Shown: positions 55,054 through 56,632, numbered from the stretch's first letter. The stretch: 64,000 nucleotides of DNA from Escherichia coli (GCF_003790525.1 NZ_CP033635.1), one strand, 5' to 3'. The notes: generated by a model from the sequence alone, not told the origin. Made by a program: numbers and translations.

Positions 55054-56238
55054 TTAACTTTCCCGGCTGGAGAGTGAATCAATGTAATCAGCGTACCATT
55101 GCATCATTTCACGGCGGCCATCGAGATACAGGGCATGATTATAGGTACCCCTGATGGAATTTTTATCCACATGAGCTAACTGCATTTCAATCCAGGCGGA
55201 GTTAAAGCCTTGTTCATGCAGAATTGTACTCATGGTGTGTCTGAAACCGTGCCCTGTGAGTCTTCCCTTATATCCAAGTAATTCAATTACTTGGTTAATG
55301 CTTTCCTTACTAATTGGTTTGCGGGGATCATTTCTACCGATAAAGACTAGGGGATGATGTTTTGAGATTGGTTCAAGCTGCTTAAATAGCATAATAACCT
55401 GCTCAGAGAGCGGCACAATATGAGGTCGCTTCATCTTCATTACTTCTGCCGGGATCTCCCACAATTTTGTCTCAAAATCGATATCTTCCCAGCGTGCAAA
55501 ACGCAGTTCTTGTGTTCGTACGCCGGTTAACATAATGATCTGAGTAGCTGTCTTAGTGATTATACTTCCGGTATAACCCGCCAGATCGTTGAGGAAGTGG
55601 GGAAGTTCATTAGCAGTAAGAAAGGGAAAATGTACTTTTTTCGGTGTAGCTAAAGCACTGGCAAGATCGGGGGCTGGGTTATAGTCTGCCCGGCCAGTAA
55701 CAATTGCATAGCGGAACACCTCACCACAGCGCTGGCGGACCTTGCGCATTTTCTCCAGAGCTCCACGTTTTTCCATTTTACGCAGTGCTTCCAGTAACTC
55801 CATTGGTTTGATTTCGGCAATAGGGCGCTTGCCAATGTAGGGAAAAATGTCTTTTTCAAAGGTATCAATGATTTCATCACGATAGCGTAATGACCACCGA
55901 TCGGCTTTTGACTGGTGCCATTCGCGAGCAATAGCCTCGAACGTATTTTTCAGACTTATTTGCTGCGCGATTTTTTCTTCCTTTTTTGCCTCCCCTGGAT
56001 CGCCTCCAGCAGCGAGGAGTTTCCTGGCTTCACTGCGTTTCTCGCGAGCATCGGCTAGCGTTACATCGGGGTATACGCCAATAGAAAGCATCTTTTCTTT
56101 ACCAGCAAAGCGGTACTTCATGCGCCAGTATTTAGAACCATTAGTGTTAATCAGTAGATACATACCGCCGCCATCAGCAAGCTTATAGGGTTTGTCTTTG
56201 GGTTTTGCGGTTTTCACTTTGATATCGGTTAATGCCAT
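55054..56238 (-). CDS. P4-type tyrosine integrase
   Basis: 394 aa; N-terminal MALTDIKVKTAKPKDKPYKLADGGGMYLL...; C-terminal catalytic ...HGFRHT...YLDGRREMMQWYADY; adjacent to the tRNA 3' end. Confidence 0.9.
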   Translation of the reverse strand: MALTDIKVKTAKPKDKPYKLADGGGMYLLINTNGSKYWRMKYRFAGKEKMLSIGVYPDVTLADAREKRSEARKLLAAGGDPGEAKKEEKIAQQISLKNTFEAIAREWHQSKADRWSLRYRDEIIDTFEKDIFPYIGKRPIAEIKPMELLEALRKMEKRGALEKMRKVRQRCGEVFRYAIVTGRADYNPAPDLASALATPKKVHFPFLTANELPHFLNDLAGYTGSIITKTATQIIMLTGVRTQELRFARWEDIDFETKLWEIPAEVMKMKRPHIVPLSEQVIMLFKQLEPISKHHPLVFIGRNDPRKPISKESINQVIELLGYKGRLTGHGFRHTMSTILHEQGFNSAWIEMQLAHVDKNSIRGTYNHALYLDGRREMMQWYADYIDSLSSRES

Positions 56239-56537
56239 GACATCCTCCGGCTTTTGATGAATTCATGTTCCTGAGGGGGATTTCTGCCAGTAACTAACCT
56301 GATACCCCCAATACACCCCTTGTATAACAAAGATGTTGTTAAAAGCCGTTGTTATGTATCACATTTTTCCTATTATGGGGGTGCTTGTATTTCAATAGGA
56401 AATAACACCCCCTAAAGTACCCCCAAAAGAAACTTGATACGGGGTGAAGTAGGTTGACCTCAGGATACAAATAAATACTGATATACAAGGGATTAGAAGA
56501 GATTTATTGACATTGGGAGAGTTCAGAAGAGGTAAAC

Positions 56538-56632
56538 TGGCGGAAGATCACAGGAGTCGAACCTGCCCGGGACCGCTGGCGGCCCCAACTGGATTTGAAG
56601 TCCAGCCGCCTCACCGGAGACGACGATCTTCC
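56538..56632 (-). tRNA. selC: tRNA-Sec (selenocysteine, anticodon UCA)
   Basis: Reverse complement reads GGAAGATCGTCGTCTCCGGTGAGGCGGCTGGACTTCAAATCCAGTTGGGGCCGCCAGCGGTCCCGGGCAGGTTCGACTCCTGTGATCTTCCGCCA (95 nt), recognised as E. coli selC. Confidence 0.9.

Follow-up and report, generated by a model that had tools for sequence, protein, structure and literature searches.

The tRNA gene selC and the P4-type integrase gene beside it form the right-hand boundary of a genomic island that occupies everything to the left of selC in the window, by which we mean the whole stretch of 64,000 nt of Escherichia coli DNA analysed here (NZ_CP033635.1, from GCF_003790525.1). The explanation that we favour, with a probability of about 0.92, is P4-type site-specific integration at the 3' end of selC, followed by extensive reshuffling of the cargo between island variants through IS elements and homologous recombination. 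The feature is of an already known kind, with near-identical annotated copies in public genomes, and it adds nothing new on how selC islands integrate. What it provides is a fixed boundary: positions 1-56537 are horizontally acquired cargo, and the sequence from selC rightwards is core, except for a variable PTS cluster beyond yicI. This boundary bears on the reading of several genes of the window, namely those of its SPATE protease, Tia-like outer membrane protein (OMP), phosphoethanolamine transferase, and PhoX (Table 1).

The original prediction held that an intact 95-nt selC, with a P4-like integrase about 300 bp from its 3' end, marks the right-hand edge of an island lying to its left, and it proposed a comparison with the empty selC-setC site of K-12. 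The analysis upholds this arrangement in each of its parts. ARAGORN finds a single tRNA in the window, a tRNA-SeC with anticodon TCA, which scores 83.8 bits against the tRNA-Sec family of Rfam (gathering score 47) and is identical to the K-12 selC at 95 of 95 nt. In K-12 MG1655, the gene order is yicH-yicI-yicJ-selC-setC, and selC and setC are 637 nt apart. The only part of the window that aligns to this region is 60658..56538, with 97.4% identity, and the alignment reveals no sequence of K-12 setC, yicL, or nlpA within the window. When the sequences are placed side by side, the similarity stops at the CCA of selC, at position 56538, after which K-12 reads AAATGCCTCTCCTGACG... toward setC and the window reads GTTTACCTCTTCTGAAC... 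toward int. Because the homology with the empty site ends exactly at the CCA, this is the true island junction. To the left of it, at least 56.5 kb follow in the window and setC is still not reached, versus the 637 nt of K-12. A core longer than selC, suggested by a blastn alignment in which the K-12 homology runs 15 nt past the gene, was rejected because only 10 of these 15 positions match by eye. An ORF of 90 codons (56507-56779, plus strand) overlaps selC in antisense; it is very probably spurious, since the relatives have no gene annotated at that position.

The integrase gene is on the same strand as selC, downstream of the 3' end of the tRNA and separated from it by a gap of 299 nt. Its product matches the Pfam families Arm-DNA-bind_3 (PF13356; residues 3-88, E 5.9e-30), Phage_int_M (PF22022; residues 100-194, E 8.4e-36), and Phage_integrase (PF00589; residues 206-370, E 1.1e-27). 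It aligns over its full length with the integrase of phage P4 (NC_001609), with 45% identity and 61% positives in 405 columns (BLASTP, E 2e-115). The succession of arm, central, and catalytic domains and the identity to P4 Int justify the label P4-type; NCBIfam returns only the generic integrase domain PRK09692. The motifs VRTQELR, HGFRHT, LAH, and RGTYNH are all conserved in the alignment with P4 Int, and they probably carry the catalytic R, H-x-x-R, H, and Y, respectively. In the stretch with int (54643..56537), the window and GF43, whose integrase is WP_001218900.1, are 100% identical. Of 5,426 complete E. coli genomes, 995 (about 18%) have this stretch with a coverage of at least 80%, BL21(DE3) among them. 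The exact protein is present on at least 1000 public contigs. Hence, this integrase is common and has been annotated already. In Nissle 1917 and in an O157:H7 strain, the integrase genes adjoining selC have 87-90% nucleotide identity to int, and the integrases of several temperate phages are about 50% identical to the protein. Int would act in recombination at the 3' end of the tRNA; only the product of such recombination is visible, as the junction at the selC end and as a duplicated 24-mer in the relative TUM9803 (NZ_CP135671.1).

Between int and selC lie P4-like arm repeats (TTGGGGGT). The motif [T/A]GGGGGT occurs nine times in the window, and four of these occurrences fall within the 299-nt spacer, where 0.04 would be expected (P about 1e-7). 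The repeats resemble the annotated arm repeats of the P4 attP, which are of the TTGGGGGCA type, and they were found by counting motifs with the P4 attP annotation as a guide; generic repeat finding around int was uninformative. A matching pair (TTTGGGGGTTCTTATGGGGGT) occurs at the far end of the TUM9803 selC island, on its inner side, about 40 nt from a 24-nt repeat of the selC end. Both GGGGGT repeat sequences have been reported before (PMC6174562). We regard the repeats of the window as putative arm-binding sites of the integrase, and their presence at both ends of an island corresponds to the layout that would be expected of an attP with arms on either side of the core.

The window contains no second copy of the att core. 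A scan for the 24-mer at the 3' end of selC, allowing up to three mismatches, gave a single occurrence in the window, that of selC itself. A blastn-short search of the window with the 3' half of selC and 60 nt of flank gave only chance-level matches, the best of which (14 of 15 nt, E 1.2) is inside the SPATE gene. The repeat search is able to detect att copies, as it recovered both the far repeat of TUM9803 and a degenerate copy in O157:H7 ATCC 43889. Searching with Int by tblastn revealed neither a second integrase nor an integrase remnant in the window. The original prediction had likewise seen no direct repeat of the selC end in the window, and an att repeat immediately left of the integrase, which would make the island much smaller, was looked for and is absent. 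Its suggestion that the far repeat was erased by IS rearrangements near 46 kb found no support: the TUM9803 island continues through this region and its repeat adjoins setC. TUM9803 has TTCGACTCCTGTGATCTTCCGCCA a second time, without mismatch, beside setC and 60.85 kb from selC, and beyond this copy come the K-12 selC-to-setC spacer and then setC, yicL, and nlpA. A 24-bp direct repeat of selC has also been reported for the island GIselC17584/1 (PMC6174562). Of the pair that is perfect in TUM9803, the window has only the selC copy, the far end of the island being outside the window. By extrapolation from the collinearity with TUM9803, this far end should be located about 22 kb beyond the start of the window. 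The missing repeat is therefore better explained by the edge of the window than by IS erasure, and the IS remnants near 46 kb are probably not the cause of its absence; a far copy of the 24-mer is likely to be present in the source genome. We found no excisionase gene in the window by tblastn with P4 Vis and an AlpA-like protein of TUM9803. The gene of the latter, an AlpA/Vis-like protein with 33% identity to P4 Vis (E 7e-10), is in a part of the TUM9803 island equivalent to the sequence left of the window start.

The extent of the island follows from its relatives. The selC island of TUM9803 is 100% identical to the window over 878-9525 and 29477-46998, i.e., over 26 kb, and 99.9% identical over 41998-53201. 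The selC island of GF60 (NZ_CP172185.1) is 99.8% identical over 70-25590. The 20 kb that are absent from the TUM9803 selC island (9525-29477) are present in that of GF60 with 99.8% identity. Because of this collinearity, all 56.5 kb to the left of selC can be assigned to the island, and the window begins inside it: position 70 is equivalent to a site 21.7 kb within the TUM9803 island. We estimate the total size at about 78 kb, of which at least 56.5 kb are in the window; the 22 kb beyond are an extrapolation, because none of the 5,426 complete genomes has exactly this arrangement. The leftward course originally predicted, through the TPR gene, the transferase, the Hek/Tia-like OMP, and PhoX, is correct in that all these genes are present, but the island does not stop at PhoX or near 46 kb and fills the window. 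The GC content is 48.3% in the insert and 44.1% in the module 50796-56537, versus 50.4% in the core flank, and the insert contains mobility remnants (two copies of IS1414, ISEc23, and remnants of IS3 and ISL3). Both relatives have the same int-proximal module as the window. They differ from it in their cargo: TUM9803 lacks the 20-kb SPATE segment at selC, and its transferase gene is followed by an additional IS3; GF60 lacks the block from mgtC to LysR. Both islands are annotated, and we know of no name for either. The region 53195-60658 is only 98.6% identical to TUM9803, versus 99.9-100% in the adjacent cargo; given also the complete identity of the int region to GF43, recombination has taken place across the selC junction itself.

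Table 1. Features of the selC island and its core flank in the window (positions counted from the first nucleotide of the window; aa, amino acids).
Feature	Position	Strand	Basis
Remaining island cargo: YadA-like gene 3' end, IS1414 twice, YaiO/GT2/PIG-L, TRAP transporter genes, sodC, ABC transporter; ROK, AbgT, 1274-aa S6 autotransporter protease, ISEc23, mgtC, nucleoside hydrolase; carbamate kinase/FdrA/YlbE, ankyrin, LysR	1..46038		Identity to the TUM9803 and GF60 selC islands
IS1414 copies in direct orientation, bracketing about 24 kb that include the SPATE gene	1630-2905 and 25630-26905		
S6-family serine-protease autotransporter (SPATE), 1274 aa, inside segment 9525-29477	21663-25487		
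IS3-family remnants	46039..47332		IS3 pseudogene annotated in TUM9803
PhoX family phosphatase, 659 aa, island cargo	47520..49499	plus	Annotation in TUM9803, GF43, and GF60; cluster names
Transposase and permease fragments	between PhoX and the Tia-like OMP		
Tia/Hek-like outer membrane beta-barrel protein, 246 aa	50816..51556	plus	Alignment to annotated tia genes
Phosphoethanolamine transferase, 500 aa, sulfatase-like	51738..53240	plus	NCBIfam, annotation in relatives
TPR protein, 347 aa, at the shiA position of SHI-2 and GIselC17584/1	53599..54642	minus	Annotation in relatives, position
P4-type tyrosine integrase, 394 aa, full length, ATG start	55054..56238	minus	Pfam, BLASTP with P4 Int
Cluster of arm-type-like repeats [T/A]GGGGGT, tandem TTTGGGGGTACTTTAGGGGGT	56270..56450	minus	Motif count, likeness to P4 attP
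att core, 3'-terminal 24 nt of selC, TTCGACTCCTGTGATCTTCCGCCA; island/chromosome junction	56538..56561	minus	End of K-12 homology, copy in TUM9803
selC, tRNA-Sec (UCA) gene, intact	56538..56632	minus	ARAGORN, Rfam RF01852, K-12 identity
Core flank, yicJ and yicI, on the 5' side of selC	56925..60635	plus	NCBIfam, 97.4% identity to K-12, annotations

The genes nearest to the integrase form a block (int, TPR gene, transferase, OMP; 50796-56537) that many genomes have in common although the cargo on its left differs; BL21(DE3) has only int and the TPR gene in common with it. The cluster of the TPR protein at 90% identity includes many Shigella members (Shigella flexneri, S. sonnei). By gene order and offset from selC, this gene seems to match CDS 3 (shiA) of GIselC17584/1, and the transferase corresponds to CDS 5-6 of the same island. 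The matches of the transferase to the NCBIfam models of the CptA/EptA type are all far below the curated cut-offs, and the protein is distant from CptA, EptA, and MCR. The OMP gene aligns over its full length, with about 70% nucleotide identity, to genes annotated as 'tia: invasion outer membrane protein Tia'; it is a paralogue and not tia itself. The 90%-identity cluster of PhoX has members from several Cronobacter species, which suggests that this gene was recently exchanged between genera.

Further to the left, the island is a mosaic. The homology with GF43, GF60, and ES1 begins at 46861, while TUM9803 spans the IS3 remnants unbroken. The remnants therefore mark an internal module junction and not an edge of the island. 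The segment 9525-29477 carries sodC, an ABC transporter, ROK, AbgT, the SPATE gene, IS1414, and ISEc23. It is at selC in GF60, and in TUM9803 it is elsewhere on the chromosome, at 1.17-1.20 Mb. Homologous recombination between the two directly oriented IS1414 copies could delete or move the SPATE block of about 24 kb. The series SPATE, IS1414, ISEc23, and mgtC (24000-31000) is together at no one place among the 5,426 complete E. coli genomes, nor does megablast find the identical whole arrangement in any of them, and the island is a mosaic unique in this set. The many IS remnants and the module junctions at 46.8 kb, 9.5 kb, and 29.5 kb imply that much of the cargo came or moved by means other than a single integration. 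One possible history, which we put forward only tentatively and would not bet on, is that the island is a recombinant of the TUM9803 and GF60 types that joined the SPATE gene to the mgtC and purine/carbamate block, and that it may still be excised and transferred as a unit of about 78 kb because int, the core, and the arm repeats are intact.

The islands at selC listed in a 2020 review are LEE, SHI-2, the tia island, PAI I536, and GI-selC17584/1 (PMC7545054). GIselC17584/1, from STEC O91:H21, was described by Saile et al. 2018 (PMC6174562). In this island, shiA adjoins int, positions 338-3215 are 99% identical to SHI-2 (first 2.9 kb), and the first 3.7 kb are 96.8% identical to a 49.6-kb avian island, AGI-3 (PMC6174562). 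The order of int, shiA, and transferase, the 24-bp repeat, and the GGGGGT repeats are published for GIselC17584/1, AGI-3, and SHI-2 (PMC6174562). The window has the same selC site as GIselC17584/1 and AGI-3, the same 24-bp repeat with TTCGACTCCTGTGATC in it, the same TTTGGGGGTACTTTAGGGGGT repeat at a distance of about 134 nt from the core, and the same order of int, the gene at the shiA position, and a 1503-bp phosphoethanolamine transferase, with offsets that agree within about 8 nt. The match to AGI-3, SHI-2, and GIselC17584/1 was judged from the repeats and offsets as printed in PMC6174562. Judged in this way, the island of the window appears to share its int/att lineage and its proximal module with these three. 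The distal cargo is different: GIselC17584/1 has a restriction-modification system and CdiAB, whereas the window has PhoX, SPATE, mgtC, and purine/carbamate genes. AGI-3 of APEC BEN2908, the island of Chouikha et al. 2006, reportedly carries the aec carbohydrate genes.

The other named islands resemble the window at the attachment site and depart from it in cargo. SHI-2, the aerobactin island of Shigella flexneri, has the selC site, a closely related integrase, and then shiA, like the window, but its aerobactin iuc/iut genes are absent from the window and from the annotations of the collinear relatives. LEE of O157:H7, PAI I536, and the tia island of ETEC H10407 have the same attachment site and integrase family; the integrase beside selC in an O157:H7 strain has about 89.5% nucleotide identity over 66% of the query. 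The collinear regions, which cover almost the whole window, have no annotated type III secretion, intimin, or Tir genes (as in LEE), and no annotated haemolysin, fimbrial genes, leoA, or leoA-like GTPase. The island of ETEC H10407 carries tia itself and leoA, in contrast with the window and its diverged OMP gene. Since the defining cargo of LEE, SHI-2, and the tia island is absent, the island of the window is not one of these named islands.

The satellite phage P4 offers a further comparison for the junction. Its int/attP resembles that of the window in the domain architecture and sequence of Int, in GGGGG-centred arms flanking a core, and in the use of the 3' end of a tRNA gene as a target, which in P4 is leuX and not selC. 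Its core is unrelated to that of the window, and the window lacks the P4 genes for replication and helper exploitation. In the explanation that we favour, a P4-type Int would have recombined the attP of a circular element with the 3' end of selC, which served as an attB of 24 nt. Such an event would have regenerated an intact tRNA and left a second 24-mer at the far end, beside setC. The present junction retains the complete set of cis and trans elements of this kind of system, namely the core, the arm-type repeats, and the full-length int. The cargo on its left is a patchwork that IS elements and exchange among variants of the island would have rearranged. From the integrity of these elements, we infer that the island may still be able to excise.

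The main alternative is that int belongs to a small proximal element only, and that the DNA further left consists of older islands displaced by serial insertion at selC, in a tandem array. Starting at int, the small element could measure about 5.7 kb, with the Tia-like OMP as its last gene (50796-56537), or about 10 kb, in which case it would include PhoX and reach the IS3 remnants at 46.8 kb. Several observations fit such a history: the int-proximal module is common to hundreds of genomes that differ in their left-hand cargo, homology breakpoints are found at 50796 and 46861, and the GC content of 50796-56537 is lower than that of the whole insert. Other strains provide parallels. In E. coli RX24, an integrase pseudogene fragment (locus 6974-7158) adjoins the Tia-like OMP on the left, and a type I restriction-modification system comes next; serial accretion may thus have taken place at selC in some strains. 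In O157:H7 ATCC 43889, a second, degenerate selC repeat, TTCGACTCCTGTGATCTCCGCCAA (locus 276-299), lies 5 kb from selC, and hence a small element is in tandem with what follows, an example of the tandem arrays that do arise at this site; the repeat comes after int, an IS, YeeU/CbtA genes, and DUF4942. The window, however, contains no such traces, as its best att-like match (14/15 nt) is in a coding gene and no integrase fragment accompanies int. Moreover, the far end of the TUM9803 island has a cognate GGGGGT pair beside a perfect 24-nt repeat, which fits the same int/att system, and IS remnants are found at the breakpoints, which argues for exchange through IS elements or homologous recombination and not for site-specific accretion. 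We therefore consider a tandem array unlikely for this island.

Two further readings have very little to recommend them. That the insert is an integrated P4-like satellite or another prophage, and not a genomic island, might be proposed from the similarity of Int to the integrases of P4 and of temperate phages. Yet the collinear regions of TUM9803, GF60, and GF43 have no annotated primase, capsid, Sid/Psu/Delta, or phage structural genes, the annotated features there being only metabolic, adhesin, and protease genes and IS elements, which effectively excludes this reading. Even less credible is that the insert is ancestral chromosome deleted in K-12, with the integrase as an unrelated passenger; nothing speaks for it beyond the fact that the far boundary lies outside the window. 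It is effectively excluded by the break of K-12 homology exactly at the 3' end of the tRNA, the duplicated 24-mer at the other end in TUM9803, the presence of int at selC in only about 18% of the genomes, and there with variable cargo, the high density of IS elements, and a GC content below that of the flank. Site-specific integration at selC followed by reshuffling of the cargo thus remains the best explanation.

On the other side of selC, the flank is core chromosome, in which yicJ is recognised by its NCBIfam equivalog model with 1055 bits. After yicI, the window has a BglG-type antiterminator and a fructose-type PTS IIA/IIB(/IIC) cluster (60930-64000), in place of which K-12 and TUM9803 have yicH. 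This cluster is 100% identical to SMS-3-5, and about 1600 of the 5,426 genomes have it with a coverage of at least 80%. It is a second variable region, located on the core side of selC.
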